Positions 15,821-63,457 of a stretch of 64,000 nucleotides of DNA are shown here, piece after piece. Where the stretch lies: positions 13,312-77,311 of the forward strand of contig JANLHL010000042.1 in assembly GCA_024654535.1 (NCBI GenBank), read 5' to 3'. This DNA comes from Candidatus Roizmanbacteria bacterium. Its GTDB lineage: Bacteria > Patescibacteriota > Microgenomatia > UBA1406. A program made the position numbers and the translations under genes. How positions within the stretch are numbered: position 1 is the first letter of the stretch; every line of letters starts with the position of its first letter. Under the pieces are notes generated by a model. That model ran no database searches, was not told the DNA's origin, and saw only the letters and a program-made list of their open reading frames with translations.

Positions 15821-16543
15821 TTATTGTACCACGGGGGTTGCGAAAACAAGCAATCGCTTCAGTGTCGTTCCCGGTGGCCAACATGTTTGTAGCGTTAAAA
15901 AAGGTTTACTCGATTGTTTCGTTATATATTCCACCTGTGTTGGGTCAACGATTGATTTATCTATGACTTTATATGCGTATTTTTTATTTTTGTAGAAAAT
16001 ATATATACGATCATTTGGTTCAAGTTTGTAAAGTAAGTAGAATACAGCGTTATAGCTACTGACGTTTAGCATGTTGTCTGTGGAGTGGGCAAATAGGTAC
16101 ATATGTCCAGAATCTCCTGGTAGTGCCGTTCCTCGTGCGTGTGCAACGCCTTTTTTGAGTGCTCCTATATATTCATCGTAGTTACTTGGATCAACATTCG
16201 CCTCCACTAAGCTATTTGCAGATATCTTTGGGATAACTATTGAAAATTCTGTATCAGCCGGTACTATTACTTCTTCTTTTGTTTGTAGTTTCTGTATTAC
16301 AGAGGCGAATGCGTTGGGCTTTGGTGTCGGGGTTACAATATGAGAGTTTTTTTTGACTTCGACAGTTGGTTGTTTAAATACTACAACGGTAGAAACGCCT
16401 CGATACTGCTTATACGCATAAACTATTTCTTGTCCTGCTATTGGACCAAAAATTTTTGCTACCATAAGGAGACTCAATAATACTAAAAAGTTGCCAACAG
16501 TACGAAATAGTAAAAGTCGTGCGTATTCCTTTTTGTATGACAT
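15821..16543 (-). CDS. Sortase family transpeptidase
   Basis: N-terminal TM anchor, catalytic His (HMYLFAHS), TLQTC motif and a downstream Arg (LKRLLV). Confidence 0.85.
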   Translation of the reverse strand: MSYKKEYARLLLFRTVGNFLVLLSLLMVAKIFGPIAGQEIVYAYKQYRGVSTVVVFKQPTVEVKKNSHIVTPTPKPNAFASVIQKLQTKEEVIVPADTEFSIVIPKISANSLVEANVDPSNYDEYIGALKKGVAHARGTALPGDSGHMYLFAHSTDNMLNVSSYNAVFYLLYKLEPNDRIYIFYKNKKYAYKVIDKSIVDPTQVEYITKQSSKPFLTLQTCWPPGTTLKRLLVFATPVVQ

Positions 16544-25160: not shown

Positions 25161-25190
25161 ACTGTGATTATAGTGAAATATATATTTTTT

Positions 25191-25199
25191 TGCTACTAT
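25191..25199 (+). promoter_or_regulatory. Extended -10 promoter (TGcTACTAT), 6 nt before ATG 25206; back-to-back with the minus-strand TATAAT (25167-25172)
   Basis: Sequence reads tgc tactat tgaaat ATG. Confidence 0.45.
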
Positions 25200-25205
25200 T
25201 GAAAT

Positions 25206-27265: not shown

Positions 27266-27295
27266 GTAACCTGTTAACTTTGGTATACTTACGTC

Positions 27296-30976: not shown

Positions 30977-31036
30977 AGGTTGATTATATCAGATTACTTG
31001 TTTCGCTTTGATGCACAATATCATTTATTGCAATTG

Positions 31037-32029: not shown

Positions 32030-32053
32030 TTCTATAGCATACCATATAAAAAT

Positions 32054-42068: not shown

Positions 42069-42095
42069 TCGGATAGAGTACGCGCTGGAAATAGT

Positions 42096-42127
42096 AGGAG
42101 CCTGCCCGCTTTGGCGAGCGGGCTCCT
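42096..42127 (+). promoter_or_regulatory. GC-rich hairpin between tasA-like gene 1 and sipW 1 (attenuator/stabiliser candidate)
   Basis: aggag/ctcct and cccgct/agcggg stems with no T-tract. Shares cctgcccgctt and ggcgagc with the hairpin at 8045-8086. Confidence 0.4.
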
Positions 42128-42141
42128 AACAATAAACAAAC

Positions 42142-43201: not shown

Positions 43202-43205
43202 CAGT

Positions 43206-43751
43206 ATGCCGAAGCTACTGTCGTTTATAGATAGTCCTTACTACTATTTCGTGGTTCTATTGTTTATTGTATTTTGTTTTAGTCTTTTTATTTTCTCACG
43301 TGAACTACCGGGGGGGTTGCGAATTATGACAGCAAAATCTGACTCTATGATTCCGGCAATTACGAAAGGTGATCTCATGGTTGTTAAGGATGAATACAAT
43401 TGGTATGAAAAAGGTGATATTGTAACGTTTTATGCACAGAAGCCAGATGGCACAGAGGAAATAGTAACACACCGGATTTATTCGGTTTCAGGAAACGTAT
43501 ACATAACGAAAGGCGACCACAATGAAGCGATTGATGAGCAAAAGCTCAGGCCACGACTTATCATCGGGAAAGTAATTACTGTTATACGAAGCGTGGGACA
43601 TATTGTAGTTTTTTTAAAAAGTCCTATGGGTCAACTTCTCAGTATCGTTTTCCCAGGGCTATTTTTTTCCAGTATTGAGGTATTGCGAATAATTGCATAC
43701 TTCAGACAACGTACGAAAGATTATACAATTGAAATCACCGATTATGACTAA
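43206..43751 (+). CDS. sipW: Signal peptidase I, SipW/archaeal-ER type (S26B), copy 2
   Basis: TM helix, AKSDSMIPAITKGD, VTHRIYSV, C-terminal TM. Start MPKLLSF is 4 nt after the upstream stop; the track start 43131 overlaps the upstream CDS. Confidence 0.8.
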   Translation: MPKLLSFIDSPYYYFVVLLFIVFCFSLFIFSRELPGGLRIMTAKSDSMIPAITKGDLMVVKDEYNWYEKGDIVTFYAQKPDGTEEIVTHRIYSVSGNVYITKGDHNEAIDEQKLRPRLIIGKVITVIRSVGHIVVFLKSPMGQLLSIVFPGLFFSSIEVLRIIAYFRQRTKDYTIEITDYD

Positions 43752-45879
43752 AAAAATAACAGATTCTGCTCTCACGTTTGAAGAGTATAAGAAGCTTGTT
43801 TCTGCAAATCTTACTGTGTTAAGTCATTATCCGAATAATTGTGCTTTTTTTGATTACACACGTACCGATTTGGCACGAAAAGCATACAAACTGTACAAAA
43901 AGAGAAAACTTGTTCCTAAACTTCTTACGAAAGGATATTTGAGTTGTGCCATATTACCCACAGACATTTCAGATATGTCGATAGAACAGTTCAAGGCACT
44001 CCGTGGATTATATGGGGACGCTCTCACAAGACTTAGATTGATAGATGATAATTTTTTTAAACACTTGAAAAATGCCACATTAGAGAACGTCCTGAATACA
44101 GGAGGTGCCTGTGCGATTGAAAGCACAGATACAAAGATACTCAATACCTTTAGAAATAAGAAAAGGCCTGACCTTATCATTCCCTATATAAAAGAAATAG
44201 CTAAGGCAACCCCTACATGGTCTCAGATCACCGGGGCACTCGTTGCAATGAGAGGAGTAAATGTGATGTATGACGAAACGTATCCTTGGTATTTGAGATT
44301 TGAACAATATGGCATCACTGGAGCAGAAAAACTTGTAAAGCAAATATATGATGGAATATATTCTGCGGTTGTACGTTATGCAAAGCTGCAGAATCCAGAA
44401 AGCACTGTTATTCGTATCCCTTTTACTGATTTGAACTTAGAGAATGATGGCAGTTTGAGGGAATTGTATGAGCTTTATAAGGAAAATATACGTTCAATAG
44501 GGTTAGACAAAAAAAATAAGAGCGTCTTTATCTATAATTCCGATTTGAATAAGAAAATGTGGGTAGAGTATACCTATAGAGGTCCACGTATTTTAGAAAA
44601 GCTTAAAGGCGTTCTGCAAAAAAAATATCCCAAGGTATTTGATACATACAACATTAACAAGGCTGCGCTACATATTCGCTCAAAACAAATTGACCATTTA
44701 ACAATAGAGCGACAAGATTCATGGCTGTGTGACATAGTCTTGAATGGTAGTAGTACAAATAATCAGATGAAGAACCGCAAGATTACACATTTATTAAAAA
44801 TGTACAACAAGGTACACGGACTTGGACTTCTGATGTGGTTCAAGGATAACTACAGCACTGTACCAGTAGGGTTTGCTGGGATGCTCGATTTTGTATACGA
44901 GGGAAGTATGGTGCACGAGTACCCAAGGAAAACTCTGTTAGAAGATGTCCTTCAAGGCAAAGCACCCCTGCAATCGCTTACCGACTCTGTGTTTCGACCA
45001 AATGCAGCCAATATAAAAAAAGTTATCCTTTTCCTAAAAAAATACACATATACACCAAAGTTAACAGTGTCTAAAGATACGCTTAGTAATATTGATAGAC
45101 TTATCAGCCAAGAAAAGAAACTGCTTAATAAGATCAATAACCTCAATCTATTACTTTTCGATTTTGAACTGTATAACAGGTTGTGGATGCGCTATAGAGA
45201 GCGAGTAAATGGAAAAAATCAATTAGTAAAACAGGTAACGATAAATACCTTTTACTATAAAAATATACATGGCTCTGAATTATTTCGTTCCCTCGTTCGT
45301 CGATATAAGTATGATCATTTATTAATTCCATCGGGAAAAAATAAAGACGACGAGTGGAGAAGAAAAGCAGAGTCATCACTTGGTTCATTTTTATCAAAAA
45401 TAACAATCACTCATGAAAATCAGGCCAAAATAGAGTTTTCCATGATGTTCAATACTGACGACGACGTATTTGGAGATAAACTTTATGATCTTGTACGTAA
45501 AGAGTTTGTTATAGATAAAGACTATCTCAACAAACTGAAAGGTGAGTTAGCTGATGTGCGCAATAGTATAAATTCAATTGTAACAAAAATTGAGATTTCT
45601 GTTCCTCAGCTGGAACTGCTCTCAAATAAAGAGCCGGTACATATCTTACCCTTAGCCGATAATTATTTTGTTTCTTTTATGCAGCAGTTTTTGTTTGTCC
45701 CCAGTATTCGAACTGCCTATATTGAACTTACCGTTATTGAGCAAGAGAAGGGAAGTATAAAAGAAAAAGAAGAGAAAATAACAAAAACATGTCAAAAAGT
45801 ATTTCCAATAATCGAAAAACTACTGCTCTATGTTTTTAAAGGTGGAGTATATCCGCACCAAGAAAGATATTCCGTATAA
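43744..45879 (+). CDS. Large hypothetical cytoplasmic protein (711 aa), translationally coupled to sipW 2
   Basis: ATG 43744 overlaps the sipW2 stop by 8 nt. Lys/Asn/Tyr-rich. No signal peptide, TM helix, Walker or HExxH motif recognised. Confidence 0.7.
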   Translation: MTKKITDSALTFEEYKKLVSANLTVLSHYPNNCAFFDYTRTDLARKAYKLYKKRKLVPKLLTKGYLSCAILPTDISDMSIEQFKALRGLYGDALTRLRLIDDNFFKHLKNATLENVLNTGGACAIESTDTKILNTFRNKKRPDLIIPYIKEIAKATPTWSQITGALVAMRGVNVMYDETYPWYLRFEQYGITGAEKLVKQIYDGIYSAVVRYAKLQNPESTVIRIPFTDLNLENDGSLRELYELYKENIRSIGLDKKNKSVFIYNSDLNKKMWVEYTYRGPRILEKLKGVLQKKYPKVFDTYNINKAALHIRSKQIDHLTIERQDSWLCDIVLNGSSTNNQMKNRKITHLLKMYNKVHGLGLLMWFKDNYSTVPVGFAGMLDFVYEGSMVHEYPRKTLLEDVLQGKAPLQSLTDSVFRPNAANIKKVILFLKKYTYTPKLTVSKDTLSNIDRLISQEKKLLNKINNLNLLLFDFELYNRLWMRYRERVNGKNQLVKQVTINTFYYKNIHGSELFRSLVRRYKYDHLLIPSGKNKDDEWRRKAESSLGSFLSKITITHENQAKIEFSMMFNTDDDVFGDKLYDLVRKEFVIDKDYLNKLKGELADVRNSINSIVTKIEISVPQLELLSNKEPVHILPLADNYFVSFMQQFLFVPSIRTAYIELTVIEQEKGSIKEKEEKITKTCQKVFPIIEKLLLYVFKGGVYPHQERYSV

Positions 45880-47421: not shown

Positions 47422-47519
47422 GCTAGTCAGAAAATGCGCGTACACTTTCGATCTTTGATTCTTTGTTTTTGAAATTTATTTTTTATTGGATATTGAATAT
47501 TTCTCTGTATACTGTTTAT

Positions 47520-49691
47520 ATGCGACGATTTTGTATTGCACTTATAGTTTTGATTATTGTTGTGCCGTCGGCTTTTGCGAATGGCAAACTTGGTGTCAAC
47601 ATTGCCGGTCGGTATACAGATTTTGAACAAGCACTTTCATTTGCGGGTGAAAACGGATGGATAGTAATTGCTTCAGAGCCAACAGAAAGACTGTCGAGTT
47701 TTATATTAGGTGCTCAAGAAAAAAAGATTCACGTTATTATACGCGGACATTATCCAGGTATTGCATTAACGACTCAATACGCACAACAGTGGGTGAATTT
47801 TTTCGCCACGCACAACTTTCCAAATAGAGTGTATTTTATACCAGCCAATGAACCAAATAATACACAAGAAAATACTGGATCTATCGACTCTGTAAAAACA
47901 TACACACAATATTTACTCGATCAAGTATCTGCACAGGGTTTGCGAAAAACAAGTGTCTATATACTTGCTCCTGCGCTCGATATATATCAACTTGCCGATA
48001 CCAATAGTGCAATATATACCCAAATGGGTGGCCCAACGTTTTTTAGTCAGTTTGATGGAATCCCTTTACATTTATATGTAGAAATGACACCTCAAGGAAT
48101 CGTAGATGAGTCGGTACACCCTTATAAAATGGGAAATTGGAAGAAGATACTAGCGGATATGAAGCTAGAAAATATGCCGGTTTTTATTGATGAAACAGGA
48201 GTTCGTTGTTTTTCGTGCACCACTCCAGACGTTGGAGGTAAGGATAAAGTAAAATATCCGTATGGAGCATCGTACCAAAAGATATATGCTAATTTTCTCA
48301 CGTACGTTAAGAATAAACAAGATTGGGGAAATGCTCAGGTGCGTACGTTTGATGTGCTTTCGTATGATCCGGTTGACTTTGGACGATCGAGTTGGCTGAG
48401 CGAGAATGGCATTCAAGATATGAATACTCTTGGCGAGAGCATAGGGAGTACAGAGGATGTTGTCTATGCGACAGAACATGGGACAAATACAGTTTTTAAT
48501 TCACAAACAGGTAGTGGCATTACAACAGGTACACAGACAGAAAAAAATCTGTTTAGTTTAGCAACAGATACATTTTTAATGAATGCGGGTGGTGCAAAAC
48601 CCGCCGCACTAGTAATGCAAGATACAGATACACACAAAGTTTTTTCTCAAAAAAAAGCGGTAGAGAATGCAGATTTTGCTCGTAGTGGGCACGTTTCAGC
48701 AACAGCTGAGACGATAGAAGAAAAACAGGGTTTTTGGCAAAAGATCCAAGATGCAGTCACAGATCTTTCGGCAGCGTTTGGATTTATTTTAGACTCTGCT
48801 ACCAGCAAGAATGTAGGATATGCGCTTTCTTTATCTCCACAGCTTGCGCACACAGCGTTTAGCGGAAGAGGGGCTGGCGTAGTCGATCTATCTGGTGAAA
48901 GTGAAAGCGTTCACAGTAAGCTTTTGGCATGGTATACGCCATATTCTATGCATACTACTGTAGTGCGTTCAGCACCTCTCAATAACACTCAGGTAGTAAT
49001 AGCTGGTAGCTCAGCAGATGTTGTTCCAGAGACAGGGACAACATCTGACGTAGTGCCGTCACAGACCTCGTCAGATGCGGCACGCAAACTGTTTTTGATA
49101 ACTGGCTATGGATGTGGGTGGGCACGTATCGAAGGGGTTGTATTGACGGAAAAACTAACAATACCTATTACAAAAGATAATTATACATGTTTGCAGAAAC
49201 CCCTTAAAGACGAAAGCGGAAAACCGTTTCTAATGTCGACCGGAGCGTATGAACTGCTTAAAGCGTCTGCACAATCATATAAATATCTACAATGTGTCGG
49301 ATTTGCTATGGCGACACAAAAAGAGAAAATCATTTTACCCGCAGCACAAGATTCGGCAACGGGCTTATCGGGAAATACATGGATTCATAGTGATTTTATA
49401 GACCCGAATCTTGCGATAGAGGGACGAAATGCAAAAGATTACTGTTCGTACAATGCTCCAAAAGGGTATGCACGTTTTGTGCCAGACCCTAAAGACAGTA
49501 CGGGAGGCATACGAGTAGGCGATTTGGTAGTATGGACGTATGCACCATGGGGACATATAGCGGTTGTGGGAAACGTGAACCCGAAAAATAAAACGATATC
49601 TGTGTACGAAGCAAATTGGGGAGGAAAAGGGGTAGTGCACTCCCGCCAAACCGTAGCATTACAAGTTGATTGTTATTTACGCAGCAAATAA
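47520..49691 (+). CDS. Secreted two-domain hydrolase: N-terminal clan GH-A-like glycosidase domain + C-terminal CHAP amidase/peptidase domain
   Basis: Signal peptide MRRFCIALIVLIIVVPSAFA (start supported by TATACT-gtttat-ATG). FIPANEPNN and VFIDETGV are GH-A acid/base and nucleophile-like motifs. CHAP motifs: YLQCVGFA (Cys) and PWGHIAVVGN (His). Confidence 0.7.
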   Translation: MRRFCIALIVLIIVVPSAFANGKLGVNIAGRYTDFEQALSFAGENGWIVIASEPTERLSSFILGAQEKKIHVIIRGHYPGIALTTQYAQQWVNFFATHNFPNRVYFIPANEPNNTQENTGSIDSVKTYTQYLLDQVSAQGLRKTSVYILAPALDIYQLADTNSAIYTQMGGPTFFSQFDGIPLHLYVEMTPQGIVDESVHPYKMGNWKKILADMKLENMPVFIDETGVRCFSCTTPDVGGKDKVKYPYGASYQKIYANFLTYVKNKQDWGNAQVRTFDVLSYDPVDFGRSSWLSENGIQDMNTLGESIGSTEDVVYATEHGTNTVFNSQTGSGITTGTQTEKNLFSLATDTFLMNAGGAKPAALVMQDTDTHKVFSQKKAVENADFARSGHVSATAETIEEKQGFWQKIQDAVTDLSAAFGFILDSATSKNVGYALSLSPQLAHTAFSGRGAGVVDLSGESESVHSKLLAWYTPYSMHTTVVRSAPLNNTQVVIAGSSADVVPETGTTSDVVPSQTSSDAARKLFLITGYGCGWARIEGVVLTEKLTIPITKDNYTCLQKPLKDESGKPFLMSTGAYELLKASAQSYKYLQCVGFAMATQKEKIILPAAQDSATGLSGNTWIHSDFIDPNLAIEGRNAKDYCSYNAPKGYARFVPDPKDSTGGIRVGDLVVWTYAPWGHIAVVGNVNPKNKTISVYEANWGGKGVVHSRQTVALQVDCYLRSK

Positions 49692-49694
49692 TCT

Positions 49695-50429
49695 ATGGAT
49701 ACCATACGTAAAAAATTAATAGTACTGGTAGGCATATCATTTATCTTTGTTGTTAGTGTACTTATACTTGTCGTTTCAACATTGCGAAAAACGAGTATCC
49801 AACCCGTTTTACCAACGCCAACTGTTCCTGTACAGTACACAACCCCTGTTCCTACTCTTTCAACTGCACTGCGTGTACTATCGAGTAAGCCAGTGGATGG
49901 AGAAACTAATGTAGCTGTCACTCTCGATGCAATACGTATATTGTTCAACGCTCCGCAAAAAATAGAGCAATTCCAAGTGTATTTTGGTGCTAAGAATGCA
50001 AAAACAAGTATTGGTACTAATGTTACATCCGAAGGAAATCAGCTGGTTATTCAGCCGCTCATGACGCTTACCCCAAAAACCGAGTTTACTCTTACTATCC
50101 GTAGTGCTAGTAGCGATACCTTTGTATATTCACTGTCGTTTACAACGGTCGATGTTCTTGCTGTGGATACATTTCCAACAGGATTTGACACTTATACAGA
50201 ACAGAAAGATTTAAAAGAACGACCAGATATTTATCTGGCAAATAAATTACCGTACGCAACTGATTCTTTTATCATGACACTGGAAGTTCCAGATAATGGT
50301 GCATATATTTATCACGTGAAATCAAAAATAACGGACGTGAAAAAAGTGCGCAATGACGTTGTTATATGGCTAAAATCTATCGGAATAACACCCGAAAACA
50401 GTGCGGGTTTTGATATACGGTACGAATAG
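49695..50429 (+). CDS. Membrane-anchored protein with SbsA/Big_5-like Ig domain
   Basis: TM LIVLVGISFIFVVSVLILVV and LRVLSSKPVDGETNVAVTLDAIRILFNAP. Starts 4 nt after the upstream stop. Confidence 0.6.
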   Translation: MDTIRKKLIVLVGISFIFVVSVLILVVSTLRKTSIQPVLPTPTVPVQYTTPVPTLSTALRVLSSKPVDGETNVAVTLDAIRILFNAPQKIEQFQVYFGAKNAKTSIGTNVTSEGNQLVIQPLMTLTPKTEFTLTIRSASSDTFVYSLSFTTVDVLAVDTFPTGFDTYTEQKDLKERPDIYLANKLPYATDSFIMTLEVPDNGAYIYHVKSKITDVKKVRNDVVIWLKSIGITPENSAGFDIRYE

Positions 50430-52581: not shown

Positions 52582-53271
52582 TTATGGGTTGTTGGTTGGA
52601 GTAGGAGTTGTCTTTTTGTTTGCGGCACAGATAGACCAATCGTTGCTGCGAACGATACCGTCGTCATTTTGGTCGTACTTTGCATTGTTAGTGTTGAAAT
52701 TCGTCTTATAATCTTCGATATTACACACAGTATCTTTTACCACCGGTTCGCTCGGTGAAGGGGTAGAGCTTGGAGTAGACGTTATCGAATTGGTAGGAGT
52801 TGAATTCGCAAGGGTTGGCGTTACTGATGTATCTGGACTAGGGGAAATGGTTGTTTGGGGTGGTGTTGGTGATAGAGAACTTTCACCAAGGGTAGTAAGT
52901 GTCCATGGGACACCACCGTTTGAGAATTTTTTATCTGCAGTGCTAATCTGGAAATAATAGGTAGTTTCAGGGGTAAGTAAATTCAACTCCACCTCATGAT
53001 TTTTTGTTTTGGTAGATTCTGGAGCAAAAAAAGTCAGAGACGTCGGGGATGTTCCATATTCAATGACACTTTGCGATTCGCTATCGGTAGTCCACGTTAC
53101 TTTTGCACTGGTTTGTGTAATTTTACTTATCGCCACGTCTTTTGGTGCAATATTTGAAGCAGAAACAAATTTGTCTTTGAGTAAATTAAACAGAATAACA
53201 CCAACAAGTACAATTCCGACAACACCTAATGTGATGGTTGCAACTCTAATCTGTTTTTCTTTTAATGCCAT
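52582..53271 (-). CDS. Membrane-anchored fibronectin type III domain protein with Pro/Thr/Ser linker and dockerin/EF-hand-like C-terminal motif
   Basis: FN3-like ISKITQTSAKVTWTTDSESQSVIEYGTSP...TYYFQIS. C-terminal DQNDDGIVRSNDWSIC. Confidence 0.65.
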   Translation of the reverse strand: MALKEKQIRVATITLGVVGIVLVGVILFNLLKDKFVSASNIAPKDVAISKITQTSAKVTWTTDSESQSVIEYGTSPTSLTFFAPESTKTKNHEVELNLLTPETTYYFQISTADKKFSNGGVPWTLTTLGESSLSPTPPQTTISPSPDTSVTPTLANSTPTNSITSTPSSTPSPSEPVVKDTVCNIEDYKTNFNTNNAKYDQNDDGIVRSNDWSICAANKKTTPTPTNNP

Positions 53272-55705: not shown

Positions 55706-56269
55706 TTAAAGCTCAATGGGTTCGAATTCTTCTGTTTTTCCTTTTTTGACTATTCTATAGAGTGTTTTATTTTGTTCAAGTGCTCGTTGCGTAAATAATT
55801 TACCCTGTAGATGGTCGAGTTCATGCTGTATGATGTGTGATTCAAATCCACGTCCTTCGTAAGTTAAAACCGTGCCGTCGACATCTTGATACCGAATAGT
55901 AACAGACTTATACCTATTGACCGCTGACCATACATTTTTTACCGATAGACATCCCTCTAATATATCTTTCTTCGCTTTTTTTGCTTCGTGTACGGATTTT
56001 GATTTTTTGAGTATGATTGGATTAATGAAGGTTCGTACTGGTTCATTTGTATCGCTTTTCATAATAAAAATCTGAAGTGCAAGTCCTACTTGTGGTGCTG
56101 CAAGTCCAACCCCTTCAGGATCTTTGCAATGTAGTAAAATCTCTTTCATTTCTTCAACAATAGTACGCAATTTGCTATTAAATGCGGTGACTTTACGCGT
56201 CTTTGTATTGAGAATAACGTCTGGTGTGTAAATGAGTCGCAACTTCATGTGTTGCATTATAACATGCAA
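55706..56269 (-). CDS. def: Peptide deformylase
   Basis: GVGLAAPQVG, EGCLS and QHELDHLQG. Confidence 0.92.
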   Translation of the reverse strand: MHVIMQHMKLRLIYTPDVILNTKTRKVTAFNSKLRTIVEEMKEILLHCKDPEGVGLAAPQVGLALQIFIMKSDTNEPVRTFINPIILKKSKSVHEAKKAKKDILEGCLSVKNVWSAVNRYKSVTIRYQDVDGTVLTYEGRGFESHIIQHELDHLQGKLFTQRALEQNKTLYRIVKKGKTEEFEPIEL

Positions 56270-56287: not shown

Positions 56288-56995
56288 TTAGAGTAACAAA
56301 GGAATAGCACCGATGAGGATAAATAGACTTGCCAACATAAGCTGAGGAATCAGTGCAACCATATTAAAACCGCCTGTATTGGGTATGCTCGTCGGAGTTG
56401 CTGTAACAGTTCCTGCAGTCGTTGGCGTAGCCGTTGTTCCAGTTGGGGTAGGTGTAGTTGATCCATTTGAGGTTATAGTATAGGAACCAGCTACGAGAGA
56501 GCTACAGGTTAATACATCTATATCTGACTGACTACTTGTCTCTGACTTTGAAATGTTCGAATCGTTTAACTGTCCTTGTGTACAGTCGAACTTTACGCTT
56601 GCGGTTCCGGCCGTCAGTGCCTTGAAGGTAATGGTAGCGAGCTCGCCTTTACCACTCACCACGGCGTCAACACTATTAACAATTCCAGATATTACGAGAG
56701 TTCCATTGTTGTCTGAATGGAGGACTGTTGGATAAAATGTACCGTCTGCGACGCTGTCAACTGCGAGGAGGGTATTGTCAAACTGTATAACTGCATCAGC
56801 ACTAGTCGTATTTACACTTTCTGTATCAACGAGCACCTTTACGGTAAAGGTAGCATCTTTTGCATATGTTCCAGTTGCTGGGTTAAATTCCATTTTTCCT
56901 GCAAAAACACTTTGTGCATGAATTGCGCTAGTAAAAATAGTCAGGACAATAATAGTACTTACTACTTTTACGATTCTTGAATAATAAAATCTCAT
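56288..56995 (-). CDS. Cohesin-domain surface protein with IPNTG sortase-type sorting signal
   Basis: Signal peptide. Cohesin-like ATFTVKVLVDTESVNTTSADAVIQFDNTLLAVDSV...GKGELATITFKALTAGTASVKF. C-terminus SIPNTGGFNMVALIPQLMLASLFILIGAIPLLL. Confidence 0.7.
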   Translation of the reverse strand: MRFYYSRIVKVVSTIIVLTIFTSAIHAQSVFAGKMEFNPATGTYAKDATFTVKVLVDTESVNTTSADAVIQFDNTLLAVDSVADGTFYPTVLHSDNNGTLVISGIVNSVDAVVSGKGELATITFKALTAGTASVKFDCTQGQLNDSNISKSETSSQSDIDVLTCSSLVAGSYTITSNGSTTPTPTGTTATPTTAGTVTATPTSIPNTGGFNMVALIPQLMLASLFILIGAIPLLL

Positions 56996-57546
56996 TGTAT
57001 TGTAAGTTGCAATGGTAACACTCGTGATAATTGATTTTTTGTGCTTGAACCAAACAGAAGTGTACTTGTCATACCCGTCTCTGAGAGCAATGGCTTAATC
57101 GATGTTACGCCTTTTTTGAGAAGAGTAAACGGGATGGTAACTATGTTATTATTTTGGGATTTAGTGGTAGCCGCATCGTCTTTGTTAAGCAAGGAAATAA
57201 CAAGAGTGTCGCTACCGGGTAAAACTCGTACCACCGTATAGTCAGCTGAAACAAGTCCATCTTGATTAAAGGCAAGAAACACAGGGTCATAGGTGAGTAC
57301 AATGTCAGTGGCACTAATGTCGTACGTTGCATCGGTGCTTACCGTTACTTTGATGGTAGTACCTACCTGCAATTTTGCCGAAGGTATAGTGACCTTCAAT
57401 GTTGTCCCTGTGCGATTTATTTGTTTACTCTCTGATTGTACAGGTTCTTTTTGTTGAACGTATCGTATGCTGATAACTAAACCAAAAAGGAACAAGGTAG
57501 TTATTAGTACAACAATTGCTGTAAAAATATGTTTATTAATTTTCAT
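56992..57546 (-). CDS. Membrane-anchored cohesin-like domain protein
   Basis: TM IFTAIVVLITTLFLFGLVISI. Cohesin-like GTTIKVTVSTDATYDISATDIVLTYDPVFLAF...IVTIPFTLLKKG. Start taken at MKINKHIF. Confidence 0.6.
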   Translation of the reverse strand: MKINKHIFTAIVVLITTLFLFGLVISIRYVQQKEPVQSESKQINRTGTTLKVTIPSAKLQVGTTIKVTVSTDATYDISATDIVLTYDPVFLAFNQDGLVSADYTVVRVLPGSDTLVISLLNKDDAATTKSQNNNIVTIPFTLLKKGVTSIKPLLSETGMTSTLLFGSSTKNQLSRVLPLQLTIQ

Positions 57547-58774
57547 CTGCATATCCTTTCTGTAGCTCGCCAAGTAGTAATGAATAATCTGCGCCATTTA
57601 TAACACCGTCGCAGTTAAGATCTCCAACTGTAAGATCGGCTGAGGTAGTTTTGTAAAATAAATTCTTAACAGTTAAAAGATCACGCATATCTGCTATACC
57701 ATTCTGAACTGCAATGTCACCAAGCGGCACAGCAACTGCACTTAAGTTAGCATCGAGTGAAGTAGTTGTTGTGCCTATAGTAATTGAGCCGCTACTACAG
57801 TTATATCGACCATTTGTACCATTTTGTGGGTTGAGCACACAAAATCTTTTTTGCGTATGATGTGGACCTTTTATCAGTATTTGATAATCAGGAGCTGCTA
57901 CCACATTGTCAAATTGAGTTGTTGCAGAGAAAGTACCATCAGTATTTGCTGTAAACGAAACATTGGATTTGCTGAGACGTGTGTTCGTAGACTGTGATAC
58001 TAGTTGAACCTTGCCCTTTATTGTGCTACATGCTTGTGGCACTGAATTTGTGAATGGATTGAATCGAACTTTTGTTTTTAGTTCTACCGTTTTTCCGTTC
58101 CCTCCTGAACCCTGATGATTAACTGCTATATGGAGTGTTTTTAGCAAACGATCATTATCAGTACCCAATTCGTTTTGGGGCAAAAGCGCGAATTTGTAGT
58201 TTGCTATGGGTCCAACGGCACTACTTGGTGCTGAGACGAAAATAATATTTGCTGGATCGGCGGTGAGAAGTCGAAAGGTAAGTGTAAATAAAACTTGATT
58301 TGATAGTTCATTTGTAGAGCGGTCGGATACTAAAGTGAGTTGTAGTAATTTACCTTCATTAAAGTCTCTTACTTTCTCAAATACAGGAGTAAACATAGGT
58401 GTATTATTTGTATCCTTTGTGAGAACGGTCACCGCTTCATACGCGATACTATTAATACCTACTTGATTGTAATTGAAGAAAAAATTTGTGGCAGAAAGCT
58501 TTTCTGTAGCAACTGCGGAAACCTTAACAGTAATAACATCTCCAGGGTTTCCAGTAATAGTACATGATCGATTAGTGGACGTTGTTACACAATCACCGAC
58601 GCTCATAGACACGTTCACCGACGGTCCGGTTTGTGCTGCCGCTTTGCTTTTATAAGTTTGTTTTATCCCAATCTGTAGTAAAAGACTTACAAGGCTGAGG
58701 GCTAAACCAACTATTACCAATAGTACTACAGTGGAAATGTGACTCTGTTTGTGCCATTTTTGTATCGTATTCAT
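57536..58774 (-). CDS. Membrane-anchored protein with cohesin-like N-domain and C-terminal dockerin motif
   Basis: GDVITVKVSAVATEKLSATNFFFNYNQVGINSI. C-terminal GDLNCDGVINGADYSLLLGEL (dockerin/EF-hand repeat). Confidence 0.7.
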   Translation of the reverse strand: MNTIQKWHKQSHISTVVLLVIVGLALSLVSLLLQIGIKQTYKSKAAAQTGPSVNVSMSVGDCVTTSTNRSCTITGNPGDVITVKVSAVATEKLSATNFFFNYNQVGINSIAYEAVTVLTKDTNNTPMFTPVFEKVRDFNEGKLLQLTLVSDRSTNELSNQVLFTLTFRLLTADPANIIFVSAPSSAVGPIANYKFALLPQNELGTDNDRLLKTLHIAVNHQGSGGNGKTVELKTKVRFNPFTNSVPQACSTIKGKVQLVSQSTNTRLSKSNVSFTANTDGTFSATTQFDNVVAAPDYQILIKGPHHTQKRFCVLNPQNGTNGRYNCSSGSITIGTTTTSLDANLSAVAVPLGDIAVQNGIADMRDLLTVKNLFYKTTSADLTVGDLNCDGVINGADYSLLLGELQKGYADEN

Positions 58775-58796
58775 TATATATGTTTGTTTATAACTT

Positions 58797-60278
58797 TCAC
58801 TGAGCTACCGGTGTTGGTGTTGCAACAATAATATCGATTGTTCTTTTTCCAGTAGTCCATTCATCAGTATCCCATACCACATTTTTTTCTTGAGCAGTAG
58901 TTGATGTGTATGTAAACTCTTGTGCCCTTTCAGGTACTCCTGTAACGCCGACTACTATATAGCTAGAAGGGTTGTATTGAATGCCTGCTCCTGCCTTACA
59001 AACACCACTTTGAATATCTGTTGTGAGAGTTGTTGTGTTTGTGTTTCGATTATCATGTCGACAAGAATTTACTCCCTGAGATTGAAGAAAGCTAGTACTG
59101 CATTGCCCAGAACTCGTAAGACACTGCAGTCTATACACGTTCGCGGCAACTGGCTCACCTTGTTGATTTTTTATATTTATTTGTACTTGCGATACAGGGG
59201 TTGGCGTAGGTGGTATCGGCGTGGGTGTGCTTGTTGGGACATATTTGAGTGCGCGAATTTTCTCAAAATCGACGATATCTACAATTTCATCACCATTTAA
59301 ATCTTGTGATTTGTATGTGCTTGCATAGGTAAATTCTTCTTTCCAAACTCCAATATTTGGTTCACACGCAGTTGTGCAATTTGCAGGGTTTGCAACTCTC
59401 AGTGGTTTGCACATGTACCCCTGAGTACTGGTTGTCCTGTGTGCAGCATTTGCTGTATAGTCGTTGGCAACACTCTCTATACTCCAGTTTAGATATCTAT
59501 TATTAGGGAAAATATTTCGAGAAACTACTAAGTCTGTCTGAGAGCCAGTATAGGCATGTTGGATAGATTTTGTGCTTTTCCAAATATCTGTTGAGTCTGC
59601 TACGAGCCATAGTGGTGAGGGTATATCAGGGTATTCTGATCGAAAAACGTAATCTGTCGTTTCTACTGAAGGAGATTTTGACCATTGAAACGTTGCTGTC
59701 CAGCCGTCATTACTACACACGGGTGGTTCCGTAAGCTTGGCAGGAGGTAAAAGCACAATAGTTGGAGTTGGGGTAGGAGGAACAGACGTTGGAGTTGGCG
59801 GGTTTTGAGCGCTCGTAGGGGTCGCAGTCGGTGGATTTCCAGTGCCCGTTGGTGTGGGTGTATTTCCTCCGCCATTTCCACAACTTGTGTCGGCTGTACA
59901 CACATCTGCGACCGCATCGGGGCACTTTGTATCGGTACAAGTACCATTCCACGTTTGTTTATAGTCGTATACAATCCCTGTACGTCTATCACCGATAGAA
60001 CATGAACCCGCACCACATGTCCCATTTATTGTTTCTGTTCGTCGGCAACTTGCGCTGCACTGTGGTTGGGGTGTTGGCGTGATCGTGGGAGGGATTGGGG
60101 TGTTAGTTGACAAGGGTGGGCAATCAGATTGAAAATCAACGCATGTAACGCCATCAGAGCATAGTGTTTGACCAGAATAGCAGCTTGCGTAGATATAACT
60201 ACGTGGAAAAACAAGAACAAATACATATGCACATAGAGCAATTGCTAACGACATAAAAACCACCGTATTTATTTTCAT
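58797..60278 (-). CDS. Secreted Cys-rich protein with Pro/Thr linkers and a dockerin-like motif
   Basis: Start MKINTVVFMSLAIALCAYVFVLVF avoids overlap with the upstream gene. Multiple Cys clusters and TPTPT linkers. DLNGDEIVDIVDFEKIRAL. Confidence 0.65.
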   Translation of the reverse strand: MKINTVVFMSLAIALCAYVFVLVFPRSYIYASCYSGQTLCSDGVTCVDFQSDCPPLSTNTPIPPTITPTPQPQCSASCRRTETINGTCGAGSCSIGDRRTGIVYDYKQTWNGTCTDTKCPDAVADVCTADTSCGNGGGNTPTPTGTGNPPTATPTSAQNPPTPTSVPPTPTPTIVLLPPAKLTEPPVCSNDGWTATFQWSKSPSVETTDYVFRSEYPDIPSPLWLVADSTDIWKSTKSIQHAYTGSQTDLVVSRNIFPNNRYLNWSIESVANDYTANAAHRTTSTQGYMCKPLRVANPANCTTACEPNIGVWKEEFTYASTYKSQDLNGDEIVDIVDFEKIRALKYVPTSTPTPIPPTPTPVSQVQINIKNQQGEPVAANVYRLQCLTSSGQCSTSFLQSQGVNSCRHDNRNTNTTTLTTDIQSGVCKAGAGIQYNPSSYIVVGVTGVPERAQEFTYTSTTAQEKNVVWDTDEWTTGKRTIDIIVATPTPVAQ

Positions 60279-60285
60279 ACTACAT

Positions 60286-62325
60286 TTATTTAACACTTTT
60301 TTGTAACTGTTGTAAATACTTTTTTGCATCGGGATAATCTCTCTTTAATTGTAACGTTTTATTCAGTAATTGCACAGCTTTTTCTTTGTCAGATTCAGAC
60401 TGTATGAGCGCCTCAGCATAAAAGTTTCTCGGATCTGTAGGTGCTATTTTTTGAGCTTGTTCAAAATCTTTGAGGGCTGTTTGAAAAAAAGATTTGCTTT
60501 TCTTGTCATCGTCGGCAAACACAAGGCTTAAAAGGTAATCTGTTTTTCCAGCAGTTCTCCAGTAATTCACATTGAACGGTGATACTGATAAAATTTCTTT
60601 TCGTGCATTTTGTGCTTGTTTCGCAAAGTTTTGGGCATTCTTTTTATCTCCACTAGTTGAAGAATAAAGAGCAATTTGAGCCGATAAATAGGCCTGTTCG
60701 TCGGCATAACTTGGTTCATATCGTGTATCGATCGCTTTTTGTATCATCGTATAGGCATTTGAAATATCATCCTGTTGGCTGTATTTTTTTGAAAGCGCAT
60801 AGTATTTGTCCGCATTGTAGTAGTCGGCAACAGAGGCAACTGCATAGGTAAGAAGCATGAGAAAGAATATATATAACCATTTTGGTGGGCGTGGAACAGT
60901 TTTAAACTGTGGCTTTGTAATAAGAAGAATCAAAAAAGGAATGAGATAAAAATATAAGTTGATGGTCGTTGTTGAAAAGCCAAAGAAATTCGTCACAAAT
61001 ATGGCGCTCAATATGCTGAGTGCGAGTATCCCAGTATGTTTATAGCGAGAATCATGTCGTAGAGTGTACAGCGCGAGCCATACGACAGCACCAAAAAAAA
61101 GTAAATACGTGCTGACCCCAACAAAACCGCTCGTAGCTGCATAATTAAGCACTTCGTTATGCGCTTTGTTATATACGTAATTCCATTCTGATGTGGCATT
61201 ATGGGCTAAGGGGCGAGTGAAATAGTATGAGTAAGCAAATGTTTCAACACCACTACCTAAAAGAGGGTAGCGTTGTGCAACGTCTAATGCACCTCTCCAT
61301 ACGATGAGACGAATGACAGAGGAGGGGGTTATTACTTCATTATTCGCCGTTGTTATTTTTTCCTGACTTGCTTGTTGTTCAGTTGTTGGTACGAATTCGA
61401 ATTCGTTGCGTATCATTGGTCCAATGCTAAAGAGTGCCATGCTTGCAATAATAAACACAACAAGAGCTACTTTTTTTCGCAGTTTTATACTATACGCGAG
61501 CCATAAAGCAGCGATGATACCAAACGCGATATATGCAGAACGAGACCGCGTCCATACCATTTCAAGACTGTACAATATGGCACACGTCGTTAAGAAGATA
61601 GTATTTATGAGTGCTGAGAATTTGGTAGCCAATTTTTGTTCCGTAACAACAAAGTAGAGTACAAGTGAGAGCTGTATCAACAGGTAAGCAGCAAACCAAT
61701 TGGGTTGTCCCAGTGTACCAAAAATACGCTGAGTTGGATCAAATGAATTTGTCCAGCACGCTGCATTGAACTGTTTTGATGTAATAAAGCAAATAATGTC
61801 ATAGCCAAAATGAGAGGGAAGTGCCCACAGTGCAGTTACTATTCCGCCGAAAATTCCCCAGCGAAATACTGTGTGGATATCCTTTCGTAAAAGTAGGACA
61901 TATGTGCTTATACCGAGTGCGTTATACGCAAGCAAAGACATGAGTCCACCGTTGAATCGCGAATAGTATCCGTAGAGAGAAACATGTTTATCTATAGAAA
62001 AGTATGTTGAAGCTATTTGAGAGAGAATAAATAAACCAAGGCTTCCCAACAGTATTTTTAAACGCATTGGAAGTGGCAAACGTTGCTTGGAATAATAATA
62101 AATGCGGTATGCAGTTATCGGTATGAGTCCAAGTGCATAGAGATAAATACTAAGCATTTTAGGAAATTCAAATAACTCGTTCGATTGGATAGAAAAAATC
62201 AGAGGAATTATAAAAAACATACTGCCGATAATGTGGGCGTATACATTCATGCAATCATGATAACATAACCCCATACTGTTTTCGACGAAGCCGAAACCTG
62301 GGACAGAGCAAATATAAATATCCAA
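60286..62325 (-). CDS. O-antigen ligase/Wzy_C-family polytopic membrane protein fused to C-terminal TPR repeats
   Basis: More than 10 TM helices, Wzy_C-like loop WTRSRSAYIAFGI, and a C-terminal ~200 aa of TPR-like repeats (YYALSKKYSQQDDISNAYTMIQKAI...). The real start may be an internal ATG (62274 or 62250). Confidence 0.75.
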   Translation of the reverse strand: MDIYICSVPGFGFVENSMGLCYHDCMNVYAHIIGSMFFIIPLIFSIQSNELFEFPKMLSIYLYALGLIPITAYRIYYYSKQRLPLPMRLKILLGSLGLFILSQIASTYFSIDKHVSLYGYYSRFNGGLMSLLAYNALGISTYVLLLRKDIHTVFRWGIFGGIVTALWALPSHFGYDIICFITSKQFNAACWTNSFDPTQRIFGTLGQPNWFAAYLLIQLSLVLYFVVTEQKLATKFSALINTIFLTTCAILYSLEMVWTRSRSAYIAFGIIAALWLAYSIKLRKKVALVVFIIASMALFSIGPMIRNEFEFVPTTEQQASQEKITTANNEVITPSSVIRLIVWRGALDVAQRYPLLGSGVETFAYSYYFTRPLAHNATSEWNYVYNKAHNEVLNYAATSGFVGVSTYLLFFGAVVWLALYTLRHDSRYKHTGILALSILSAIFVTNFFGFSTTTINLYFYLIPFLILLITKPQFKTVPRPPKWLYIFFLMLLTYAVASVADYYNADKYYALSKKYSQQDDISNAYTMIQKAIDTRYEPSYADEQAYLSAQIALYSSTSGDKKNAQNFAKQAQNARKEILSVSPFNVNYWRTAGKTDYLLSLVFADDDKKSKSFFQTALKDFEQAQKIAPTDPRNFYAEALIQSESDKEKAVQLLNKTLQLKRDYPDAKKYLQQLQKSVK

Positions 62326-62371: not shown

Positions 62372-63457
62372 ATGCGAAGACGTAAAACTGTGTTTGGGAT
62401 GTATACACTAACTCGTGTATTCGATTGGTTTTCTACGCTGTTTGCAAATGTTCCTTTTGTTGGTGTTGATTTGGCGAGCGTGTCAACGCGTGTCTATTTA
62501 CAGGAAAAAGGAATAGTAGTGCGAGAGAAAACATATGCGGTTCGTAATCAGAAAAGTTCCACATTTATAGCGTTTGGGAATGAAGCATACGATATGGTTG
62601 GCAAAACACCTCCCGATCTTACCGTTTTTGCACCTATTGACAGGGGAAGGGTAAGTGACTTCGATGGACTTGTTTATTTTTTGCGACATGTACTAGAGCG
62701 CGCTTTTGCGCCATATCCTCAGTTTTCCCCAAATGCATTCAACATGATTATATCCGTCCCTATAGGATTGACAGAAGTAGAGGAAATGGCGCTCGTTGAA
62801 GTTGGTAAAAAAGTAGGTGGTAGAAAGGTACTAATAGTAGAAACACCTCTTGCAGCAGGATTTGGATTACGCTTACCTATAATGGAAAATATGGGTAATT
62901 GTATAGTAGATATTGGAGGTGGAACAACTGAAATAAGCGTACTGTCGCTTGGTGGAATTGTCGTATCTCGAGTATTAAAAATTGGTGGCATCGATTTTAA
63001 CGAGGCTATCATTAATTATTTGCGTATGCGCTACGGCATACTTATTGGCAATCCTTCGGCTGAAGAAATAAAGCTGTCATTGGGCTCTGTGTTGGAAAAT
63101 CAAGACTTTTCCTTGGATATTAGTGGTCGAAGCATAGAAACTGGCATGCCAAAAACGGTAAAGGTAAAAAACCATTTGCTGTATGAGCCACTGTATCCTT
63201 ACTTTGGTCAGATTCAAGACGCCATACGCGAGATTATAGAAGAAACGCCACCCGAGCTTATAACCGACATTACTAAGAAAGGAATCATCCTCTCTGGAAT
63301 GTCAGCAAAATTCATAGATTTAGCGAAATATTTATCACGTGATTTAGGTATGAGTGTTGTTTTAAGCGATGATCCTGCAGATAGTGTGGTAAAAGGTTTG
63401 GGCTGGCTTATCGAGCATCCTCTCATCATGGAGAAGGTAGTAATAAAATTTAATTAG
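62372..63457 (+). CDS. Divergent MreB/actin-like ATPase paralog
   Basis: VGVDLASVSTRVY, VDIGGGTTEISVLSLGGIV and ILSGMSAKFIDL. Start 62372 is supported by TATACT-gtaccc-ATG. Confidence 0.8.
   Translation: MRRRKTVFGMYTLTRVFDWFSTLFANVPFVGVDLASVSTRVYLQEKGIVVREKTYAVRNQKSSTFIAFGNEAYDMVGKTPPDLTVFAPIDRGRVSDFDGLVYFLRHVLERAFAPYPQFSPNAFNMIISVPIGLTEVEEMALVEVGKKVGGRKVLIVETPLAAGFGLRLPIMENMGNCIVDIGGGTTEISVLSLGGIVVSRVLKIGGIDFNEAIINYLRMRYGILIGNPSAEEIKLSLGSVLENQDFSLDISGRSIETGMPKTVKVKNHLLYEPLYPYFGQIQDAIREIIEETPPELITDITKKGIILSGMSAKFIDLAKYLSRDLGMSVVLSDDPADSVVKGLGWLIEHPLIMEKVVIKFN

Follow-up and report, generated by a model that had tools for sequence, protein, structure and literature searches.

The locus described here raises the question of what cohesin and dockerin modules, the sockets and plugs of cellulosomes, do on the surface of a bacterium that belongs to the candidate phyla radiation (CPR). 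It lies in a 64-kb stretch of DNA, called the window below, with a G+C content of about 39%. Five consecutive, co-directional open reading frames (ORFs) on the minus strand span positions 56288-62325, and the ORF map places all of them where the original prediction, made from the sequence of the window, had put them. In the direction of transcription they encode P5, a Wzy_C-family membrane protein; P4, a secreted Cys-rich protein; P3, an adaptor with a cohesin-like domain and a dockerin; P2, a membrane-anchored cohesin; and P1, a cohesin with a sortase-type sorting signal. The source organism is a member of the Microgenomates within CPR/Patescibacteria, because P4 (hypothetical protein NUV65_06415) and P1 match, with 100% identity, proteins from a metagenome-assembled genome (MAG) of a Candidatus Roizmanbacteria bacterium at NCBI. 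We conclude, with a probability of roughly 0.65, that the locus is a non-cellulosomal cohesin-dockerin surface-assembly cassette. That the cassette recurs in many contigs of Microgenomates is in keeping with the original prediction of a cell-anchored, non-enzymatic scaffold.

The gene starts used here are those of NCBI and of gene calls in relatives; starts of the longest ORFs give bigger overlaps. The P4 start at 60278 (493 residues) is NCBI's own gene call, and the P2 start at 57552 (186 residues) was chosen from an AAAGGA ribosome-binding site together with the gene calls of homologues and close relatives. For P5 the start at 62250 (654 residues) was used, the longest ORF extending to 62325. 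With these starts, gaps of 7 and 22 nt are found at the P5/P4 and P4/P3 junctions, and overlaps of 17 and 4 nt at the P3/P2 and P2/P1 junctions, which agrees with the spacing of at most 22 nt given originally. With the peptide deformylase gene def added, the co-directional run comprises six genes, P5-P4-P3-P2-P1-def. A terminator scan found no terminator-like site on the minus strand between P5 and def. The tight spacing and the lack of an internal terminator make it probable that def, a housekeeping gene, is co-transcribed with the surface cassette. The P1-def junction is also present in L001, L009, L013, L016 and L045 (L numbers denote related loci). A promoter scan gave no result above the shuffled expectation.

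Cohesin and dockerin modules of the cassette

P1 exceeds the gathering threshold (GA) of the Pfam Cohesin model (PF00963; 31.6 bits, GA 24.1) and is already named "cohesin domain-containing protein" by NCBI. An AlphaFold2 model of P1 was built from 34 homologues and has a mean predicted local distance difference test score (pLDDT) of 84.4, with a core above 90. When the model was compared with the Protein Data Bank (PDB) using Foldseek, the best 44 matches were all cohesins, headed by 6kgc_A (target-normalised template-modelling (TM) score 0.82, root mean square deviation 2.1 Å), 2vn5 and 1g1k. Also matched are 2xdh, a non-cellulosomal cohesin of Archaeoglobus fulgidus, and the ScaE cohesin 2zf9. 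P1 is thus predicted to adopt the cohesin fold, a nine-stranded β-sandwich of the jelly-roll type.

A profile search with P1 returned 108 homologues, nearly all of 205-255 residues and with the architecture of P1. Where the source is named, it is a MAG of Roizmanbacteria, of Gottesmanbacteria or of the "Patescibacteria group". A C-terminal [LI]Px[TS]G motif followed by a hydrophobic tail is present in 95 of the 108. The commonest form is LPQSG, and IPNTG occurs in seven. Among the 95 proteins carrying the motif, 63 have a K or R within the last 8 residues. The C terminus of P1 itself (...LFILIGAIPLLL) contains neither and does not have the positively charged end of sortase substrates. The signal peptide, the LPXTG-like pentapeptide and the hydrophobic stretch that mark such substrates are all found in P1, the only ORF of the window with a sorting-signal-like C terminus. 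The window also encodes a sortase, which passes the TIGR01076 sortase_fam model (51.5 bits; cut-off 39.35) and reaches the threshold of none of the sortase subclass models. The original reading of IPNTG plus hydrophobic tail as an LPXTG-type signal is upheld by the conservation of the motif, and sortase anchoring of P1 is plausible.

The sortase gene is adjoined by a gene for a PEGA-domain protein (16553-17887) and by a second MreB paralogue (17903-18925). The PEGA protein was considered as a substrate of the sortase and rejected, as it has no sorting signal.

P2 scores 32.7 bits against the Pfam Cohesin model (GA 24.1). Its family aligns with the P1 family in hhalign with a probability of 97%, and its profile matches cohesins in the PDB. 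Near the N terminus of P2, and likewise of P3, there is a single segment of strong hydrophobicity. Because no signal-peptidase site follows closely behind, these segments are read as membrane anchors, in agreement with the original description of P2 as a membrane-anchored cohesin-like protein.

A type I dockerin was taken to consist of two tandem segments of ~22 residues, in each of which a helix follows an EF-hand-like Ca loop whose ligands occupy positions 1, 3, 5, 9 and 12. Residues 358-400 of P3 match the Pfam Dockerin_1 model (PF00404) with 23.8 bits (GA 22.9), and the L013 orthologue of P3 scores 31.6 bits. In a comparison with the PDB, the P3 family profile aligned over both repeats with the solved dockerins 5lxv_B, 3ul4_B and 2y3n_B (E 0.003-0.006). 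The second repeat (GDLNCDGVINGADY) is canonical, with all Ca ligands in place. Across the window, a strict EF-hand/dockerin loop pattern is confined to P3 and one further ORF, that of the FN3 protein described below.

Pfam did not detect a cohesin in the N-terminal domain of P3. When the family was widened with distant relatives from L005, L012 and L013, the resulting profile of seven sequences aligned in hhalign over ~95 columns with the P2 family (probability 83%, E 9e-6) and the P1 family (probability 81%, E 1.2e-5). A narrow profile of three sequences gave an unconvincing probability of just 11-18%. The wider comparison supports the reading of this domain as a divergent cohesin. A low-confidence model of full-length P3 retrieves the CipA CohI9-X-DocII fragment (4fl4, 3kcp) as the top matches (E 2e-6), as well as isolated cohesins (probability 0.98-1.0, TM score 0.35-0.47); we take these structural matches as a consistent hint only. 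The cohesin and dockerin assignments made originally are therefore backed by hidden Markov models (HMMs) for P1 and P2 (Cohesin) and for P3 (Dockerin_1), and the proposed combination of a membrane anchor, a cohesin-like domain and a terminal dockerin in P3 is supported.

Between its cohesin and dockerin, P3 carries an immunoglobulin (Ig)-like module. In other loci this module and the dockerin also occur together as one unit. A second, unlinked protein of 388 residues in L013 (12489-13655) bears the Ig-like module and a C-terminal dockerin, which shows the dyad to be mobile, a unit that different proteins can carry.

P4 consists of a signal peptide, a Cys-rich module, a Thr/Pro-rich (PT) linker, an FN3-like β domain (from ~59726), one dockerin repeat, another PT linker and, at the C terminus, a β domain that contains Cys. 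There are four PT-rich linkers in all, and 21 Cys residues in the 493-residue form (22 in the longest ORF). The motif DLNGDEIVDIVDF is situated at residues 326-338. In the sole dockerin segment (DLNGDEIVDIVD) every ligand position is filled, and CEPNIG stands in place of the first loop. The protein retains a remnant of the first helix, GVWKEEFTY, together with the second loop and helix (DLNGDEIVDIVDFEKIRALKY). The first Ca loop is present in all positional analogues of P4 and missing from P4.

P4 has no match in Pfam, with no dockerin at E<=1, and its profile has no match among PDB sequences. A local dockerin HMM gave a non-significant E value of 0.2 on P4 itself. A jackhmmer search of all fetched loci with segments of P4 returned only close relatives and low-complexity noise from PT linkers. 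Five homologues were found by word index, and 17 HMMER matches among 1.84 billion representatives. Remote homologues have in common the FN3-like β domain followed by the motif segment; their other domains differ and include Exo_endo_phos (P0119) and RCC1 repeats (P0126). Positions 305-361 of the P4 profile match genuine dockerins in P0123, P0130, P0131 and P0132, and the homologue P0118 has a weak Pfam Dockerin_1 match to one repeat (E 0.007). On these comparisons the motif of P4 is a half dockerin, apparently homologous to one dockerin repeat and falling short of the two-repeat definition. The original description of P4 as secreted and Cys-rich with PT linkers stands; its dockerin-like motif is reduced to a single repeat below the Pfam threshold.

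P0123, a protein of 917 residues in the representative library, contains eight tandem Dockerin_1 domains (Pfam E 6e-70), each of them part of a repeat unit in which Cys residues are conserved. The possibility that P4 is a lipoprotein was rejected, since it has no proper lipobox and its orthologues have a signal-peptidase I site between VSA and AC.

Table 1. Coordinates of the cassette, its modules and associated genes in the window
Feature	Position	Strand	Basis or remark
P1, anchoring cohesin, 235 residues	56288..56995	-	Pfam, AlphaFold2/Foldseek, sorting signal
P1 predicted signal peptide	56915-56995	-	cleavage after AIHA, before QS
P1 cohesin	56471-56899	-	
P1 PT linker, 29 residues, Thr/Pro-rich	56384-56470	-	
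P1 IPNTG, residues 204-208	56372-56386	-	
P1 hydrophobic tail, 27 mostly hydrophobic residues	56291-56371	-	
P2, single cohesin with putative N-terminal membrane anchor, 186 residues	56992..57552	-	
P2 transmembrane segment	57466-57528	-	
P2 cohesin	~56998-57396	-	
P3, putative membrane-anchored adaptor, 412 residues	57536..58774	-	
P3 N-terminal transmembrane segment	58664-58738	-	
P3 probable divergent cohesin, residues ~50-225	58100-58627	-	profile-profile comparison
P3 Ig-like "X-type" module, ~120 residues, β-rich, between cohesin and dockerin	57740-58093	-	
P3 dockerin	57560-57736	-	Dockerin_1, Pfam
P4, secreted Cys-rich cargo protein, 493 residues	58797..60278	-	
P4 dockerin-derived helix-loop-helix (CEPNIGVWKEEFTYASTYKSQ-DLNGDEIVDIVDF-EKIRALKY)	59241..59366	-	
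P4 single Ca-type loop	59265-59303	-	
P5, polytopic Wzy_C-family membrane enzyme, 654 residues	60286..62250	-	Pfam Wzy_C
P5 C-terminal helical TPR-like tail, ~180 residues	60289-60825	-	
def, peptide deformylase	55706..56269	-	ORF map; begins 18 nt past the P1 stop
FN3 protein, membrane-anchored (Pur_ac_phosph_N-like), with PT linker and C-terminal module	52582..53271	-	
FN3 protein, single EF-hand-like loop DQNDDGIVRSND	52639-52674	-	
Sortase, 240 residues, TLQTC motif	15821..16543	-	Pfam Sortase 82.1 bits; presumed transpeptidase for P1

Recurrence of the cassette and its FN3 neighbor

Distant contigs were found via the P1 family, including a metagenome scan with a 10-sequence alignment, and were scanned with HMMs built in this analysis. 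In the close relatives L001-4, L006, L008-10 and L015 the gene order is identical, with mreB followed by Wzy_C-P4-P3-P2-P1-def, and in all relatives a conserved region, mreB ... def ... L10/L12 ... M50, surrounds the locus. Beyond these, the cassette occurs in L005, L012, L013, L016, L019, L023-25, L026, L045 and L046, which represent at least eight Microgenomates lineages. The recurring order is a cargo with a W-type dockerin, a transmembrane cohesin of the type found at the N terminus of P3 (P3N), an Ig-like module with a dockerin, a P2-type transmembrane cohesin and a P1-type sortase cohesin. The P3N-type cohesin is a separate gene in L005, L012, L024/25 and L046 and is fused in the window, L013 and L045. 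The Ig-like module and the C-terminal dockerin are always found together in the recurring cassettes.

The cargo position is occupied by one or two secreted proteins with a W-type dockerin. In every lineage other than that of the window, this dockerin at the P4 position is internal and has two repeats, GDANCDxVIxxxDFxIWKxQYLG...DFDxDGxxxxxDFEIWRxNF (Pfam E 3e-4 to 5e-3). The cargo is different in every lineage, with CBM60 in L013, NHL repeats in L012 and a DUF1554/antistasin-like protein of 993 residues in L045. The identities between the window and L001, L009 and L013 are 96.6, 94.5 and 55% for the P1 cohesin domain, 92, 91 and 53% for def, and 73, 71 and 26% for P2; P4 is 79% (L001) and 69% (L009) identical. 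As the values for P1 are near those for def and the values for P2 and P4 are lower, the anchors are conserved, the cargo and one cohesin being fast-evolving. The cargo slot is hypervariable.

When genome contigs were profiled with the P1 alignment, a single locus was returned, which belongs to an Anaerolineae MAG outside the CPR (L011; JBMFPM010000031.1). This locus (6220-10939) encodes an 898-residue protein with a dockerin-like segment and a cohesin, followed by a protein of at least 674 residues with two cohesins.

The most conserved neighbor of the P1-type cohesins is the FN3 gene, which makes a functional link between the two likely. In the window, the genes between P1 and the FN3 gene are def, a helix-turn-helix gene, L7/L12, L10, thioredoxin and holB. 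An FN3 orthologue is situated directly downstream of the P1-type cohesin in L012, L014, L017, L018, L020, L022, L023, L025 and L046. Three tandem copies are present in L012 (10796-13234), and the L014 copy is at 10635-11222. In L028 (134-2110), cohesin and FN3 are fused into one protein of 658 residues. The FN3 protein may be an accessory or a ligand of P1.

The FN3 protein of the window matches Pur_ac_phosph_N (44.3 bits) and fn3 (25.7 bits) in Pfam and has no match to Dockerin_1 at E<=1. Its orthologues usually end in a four-Cys module, CxETDCxxIKxKLGKGCxxxDYxKC, in place of which only the close relatives of the window have CNIEDYKTNFNTNNAKY-DQNDDGIVRSND-WSIC. The loop was therefore rejected as a bona fide dockerin, as the orthologues are without it and HMM support is absent. 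The suggestion that this protein may be a further dockerin-bearing client is not supported either, the single loop being specific to one lineage.

In L014 (7483-9971), L018 (4509-9366) and L022 (6364-9095), a different conserved set of genes precedes the P1 and FN3 pair. It takes the place of the dockerin and cohesin genes, includes no dockerin and encodes a transmembrane-anchored protein of ~540-670 residues, a protein of ~140-160 residues and one or two polytopic membrane proteins of ~100 residues (MYIGPFYFDTKEIFL...).

The Wzy_C enzyme and the rest of the window

P5 exceeds the Pfam Wzy_C threshold by a wide margin (PF04932; 71.5 bits, GA 31.7). It has about 12 hydrophobic segments and aligns with the solved WaaL ligase 7tpg_B (E 1.9e-4). 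The motifs conserved in this alignment are IRLIVW..GSGVETF (61231-61323) and AHNE (61117-61173). The HMM match, the polytopic topology and the Arg/His motifs of the large external loop all identify P5 as an apparently intact Wzy_C-family enzyme of the glycan ligase, polymerase or O-oligosaccharyltransferase (O-OTase) type. The C-terminal TPR repeats that had been described along with the Wzy_C domain are marginal: the matches agree in leading to TPR proteins, and all are sub-significant (TPR_2, E 0.054; TPR_CcmH, E 0.25; HOP TPR2A, E 0.3; TPR_19, E 0.69), the TPR_2 record of the L045 orthologue being "faint". Beyond the catalytic loop there are four more hydrophobic segments, which by a rough count of transmembrane segments would place the TPR-like tail outside the membrane. 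The other MreB gene of the window (62372-63457) is divergent from the Wzy_C gene.

The original prediction went on to suggest that the scaffold is glycosylated, because of the adjacency of Wzy_C. This adjacency is limited to one clade. A Wzy_C gene is found between mreB and the cassette only in the clade of the window, L013 and L045 (P1 identity 47-49%), L031 being a weak case of a Wzy_C neighbor. In five lineages (L012, L014, L018, L022 and L046) no Wzy_C gene is present within 10 kb of the cassette. Scaffold glycosylation by P5 is for this reason speculative. P5 is likely co-transcribed with the cassette here, yet Wzy_C does not appear to be integral to it.

On balance we slightly favor the explanation that P5 is functionally independent of the cohesin-dockerin proteins, a polymerase or ligase for a cell-wall glycopolymer or exopolysaccharide that is their neighbor merely by descent. 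Besides the restricted distribution of the gene, this agrees with WaaL as the closest solved structure and with a Pfam family that does not separate ligases, polymerases and O-OTases. Set against it are the 7-nt P5/P4 gap with no terminator, the Thr/Pro-rich linkers in all four partner proteins and the TPR-like domain predicted outside the membrane. In addition, genes for PglL-type O-OTases are described as frequently adjoining the genes of their target proteins (PMC3643930). O-Glycosylation of the PT linkers is a possible role of P5 in the complex. Compared with the known members of the family (WaaL, Wzy, PglL/PilO/WsaB), P5 passes the same threshold, is polytopic and has Arg/His loop motifs as in WaaL 7tpg; it differs by its extra C-terminal TPR-like domain, and substrate and acceptor are not readable from its sequence. 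The organism presumably has no lipopolysaccharide, as assumed for CPR envelopes, unlike the hosts of WaaL.

A glycan-biosynthesis cluster on the minus strand encodes glycosyltransferases of families GT4, GT4, GT2 and GT4 (28612-33226), followed by a DUF218 plus kinase-like protein, up to 34861. A WecG/TagA-family glycosyltransferase gene is located at 19126-19953 (+). The glycosyltransferases of the window are a possible source of lipid-linked glycan for P5. Together with an external tail of P5 they would be compatible with O-glycosylation of the linkers, rather than demonstrating it.

Several other features of the window lie apart from the cassette. An ATP-citrate-lyase-like gene set (23519-28096, +), unexpected in a metabolically reduced CPR genome, encodes a protein with Citrate_bind and ATP-citrate synthase ATP-grasp domains (23519-24688, E 4e-59), a CoA-ligase domain protein (26336-27265) and a protein with the C-terminal domain of citrate synthase (27296-28096). 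The region 41436-45879 (+) may be a TasA/SipW-type fiber locus. One protein encoded there has a signal peptide of the SipW-dependent type (TIGR04088, camelysin-like Peptidase_M73), and another, of 728 residues, has no family match; the locus also includes two S24/S26 signal-peptidase-like genes (42142-42636, 43131-43751). At 47463-50429 (+), a 742-residue protein with a sub-threshold GH5 match and a CHAP peptidoglycan-hydrolase domain is followed by a Big_5 Ig-like protein; both are conserved beside the M50 protease in relatives, and neither has a dockerin. A cobalamin riboswitch (20783-20934, +; 52 bits) is located upstream of a 487-residue ORF (20996-22459) with no Pfam match. The window further contains the competence genes ComEC and ComEA and, elsewhere, a stand-alone "putative phage metallopeptidase" gene (PF18894); the minus-strand coordinates 4621-6184 and 40825-41211 apply to these genes jointly.

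Proposed surface assembly and its alternatives

In the proposed mechanism, P1 would be exported by the Sec pathway and joined to the cell wall by a sortase, as is ScaE of Ruminococcus flavefaciens, and P2 and P3 would be held in the membrane by their N-terminal helices. The Ig-dockerin dyad of P3, which resembles an X-module-dockerin (X-Doc) dyad, would plug in a Ca-dependent manner into the anchoring cohesin P1 or P2. The cohesin of P3 would in turn hold the dockerin-derived module of the soluble cargo P4. The outcome would be a stack, tethered to wall and membrane, on which a Cys-rich protein that evolves fast and is not an enzyme is displayed. The adjacent gene order across lineages suggests the pairings, W-type dockerin with P3N cohesin and C-terminal dockerin with P2 or P1 cohesin. 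As the cargo slot of relatives holds such varied proteins (CBM60, NHL, antistasin/DUF1554 or nuclease-like), the system resembles a platform for the display of binding or adhesion modules in general, and not a machine that degrades polysaccharides.

Several observations weigh against this assignment. The pairings are drawn solely from gene order and cellulosome analogy. In P3, the first dockerin repeat (GDIAVQNGIADMRD) is degenerate, with Ala at ligand position 3 and a one-residue insertion, and the full-length AlphaFold2 model, built from five sequences, has a pLDDT of 45.7. P4 has one repeat, some of its remote homologues have lost even the acidic ligands of that loop, and P4 may no longer work as a dockerin. 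P1 is without the charged tail of classical sorting signals, and the sortase is encoded 40 kb from the cassette and belongs to no defined class. Finally, P1-type cohesins occur without any local dockerin gene in L014, L018 and L022, which means that the ligand of P1 need not be the P3 dockerin.

An alternative role is that of a core envelope module, in which cohesin-dockerin or cohesin-FN3 contacts tether the membrane to the wall or organize an S-layer-like coat, as a housekeeping function alongside mreB, def and the ribosomal genes. The P1 cohesin domain is conserved like def and MreB, the conserved genomic setting is shared by all relatives, and the pair of P1 and the FN3 protein is kept even where unrelated membrane proteins replace the dockerin genes. 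Membrane anchoring is common to the FN3 protein and two of the three proteins with cohesins, and in the saccharibacterium Southlakia epibionticum a dockerin protein (SEML1_0315) and an FN3 envelope protein (SEML1_0890) are essential (PMC10633639). However, the hypervariable cargo and the fast-evolving P2 and P4 better suit a role in interaction or recognition, and there is no evidence of lattice-forming domains. We regard this explanation as unlikely, although it and a display function are not mutually exclusive.

A more far-reaching proposal would make the cassette a modular, Microgenomates-wide surface organelle for docking, through which host cells or particles are recognized or attached to in a strain-specific way. 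It would combine one wall-linked and two membrane-linked anchor cohesins with two orthogonal classes of dockerin (internal W-type on the cargo, and C-terminal on the Ig-like X-type module) and a hypervariable cargo slot. The half dockerin of P4 and the C-terminal module of the transmembrane FN3 protein, a four-Cys helix-turn-helix in most lineages and one Ca loop in that of the window, would then be new minimal cohesin ligands, and the Wzy_C-TPR protein a dedicated O-glycosyltransferase for PT linkers in one clade. Taken as a whole, this proposal is a long shot.

That the locus is a true minimal cellulosome or polysaccharide-utilization complex, with cohesins organizing dockerin-bearing carbohydrate-active enzymes (CAZymes) encoded elsewhere in the genome, is very unlikely, since each cohesin protein has a single cohesin with no multi-cohesin scaffoldin here, most of the cargo analogues are modules of the binding or repeat kind (NHL, RCC1, antistasin-like, Exo_endo_phos), and no protein of the window joins a dockerin to a glycoside hydrolase, any other CAZyme or a CBM, which leaves the window outside the definition of a cellulosome and agrees with the original remark that no glycoside hydrolase is attached. 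The pointers toward it are the CBM60 on the positional cargo analogue of L013, a GH39 gene 6 kb upstream in L046, a weak GH5-like protein in the window (47463-49691), which has a CHAP domain and no dockerin, and the cohesin and dockerin proteins expressed by a Ca. Shapirobacterales (Microgenomates) MAG, which were read as a cellulosome (bioRxiv 10.1101/2021.08.21.457207).

The non-cellulosomal surface cassette that we favor has parallels in known systems. Anchoring scaffoldins with a single, sortase-anchored cohesin are known as ScaE in R. flavefaciens and as Sca2 in R. bromii (PMC5301203, PMC4611034). P1 has their architecture, in which a signal peptide, a single cohesin and a Thr/Pro linker precede an LPXTG-type signal with its hydrophobic tail, and ScaE cohesin structures (2zf9, 4iu2) are among the matches of the P1 model. 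The ligands of ScaE are X-module-dockerin dyads (PMC5301203), and a dyad of an Ig-like module and a dockerin is likewise present in P3. In contrast, P1 is just ~11-15% identical to these proteins, its best structural matches are type I cohesins (6kgc, 2vn5), its family has IPNTG or LPQSG instead of LPXTG, and P1 is without the basic tail. The bacterium that hosts it is a monoderm-like member of the CPR, no cellulolytic enzymes are in view, and P1, unlike ScaE, is paired with membrane-anchored cohesins and a transmembrane FN3 protein.

P3 has the same order of cohesin, Ig-like X module and dockerin as CohI9-X-DocII of CipA from Clostridium thermocellum (anchors SdbA, OlpB and Orf2p), to which its low-confidence model is also most similar. 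By analogy, the adaptor logic would be alike, its own cohesin taking the cargo and its dockerin plugging into the anchor. P3 differs in having one cohesin, no CBM and an N-terminal helix as its own anchor. Its cohesin and X-Doc parts are separate genes in several relatives, and anchoring here is by sortase or transmembrane helix, not by SLH domains.

Assembly outside plant-cell-wall degradation is known from the cohesin-dockerin pairs of A. fulgidus (2xdh) and of the GH84/GH33 toxin complex of C. perfringens (2jh2, 2vo8, 2w1n), all of which are among the significant matches of the P1 model. The structure 2w1n is a cohesin-FN3 double module, which echoes the cohesin-FN3 link of the present loci. 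In those organisms the modules are on enzymes or isolated proteins, whereas here a dedicated multi-gene cassette combines three cohesins that serve as anchors with dockerins of two classes and a slot for variable cargo. The proteins of Ca. Shapirobacterales and S. epibionticum, compared by their domain lists only, come from the same superphylum and have the same domain types and cell-envelope location; those reports list domains and describe no operon structure, anchoring mode or pairing. Full-text literature searches found no description of the cassette, its anchoring modes or the half dockerin.

The principle of assembly is familiar, and P1 was already annotated; a cargo-swapping cassette in host-dependent ultrasmall bacteria is a tractable lead on their surface organization. 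For the cellulosome field, the locus adds N-terminally membrane-anchored cohesins, a possible one-repeat dockerin and a recurrent cohesin-FN3 partnership. If the link to Wzy_C is true, it would also provide a rare candidate for a system of protein O-glycosylation among CPR bacteria. As its modules are small and recombinantly expressible, pairings could be mapped by cohesin-dockerin arrays and the cargo used as bait for host ligands. CPR/Patescibacteria are thought to live attached to other cells, and to our knowledge the surface machinery for this attachment is largely unknown outside the Saccharibacteria. A conserved cassette with an exchangeable cargo gene, built on a plug-and-socket principle, would offer a concrete and testable handle on CPR surfaces.

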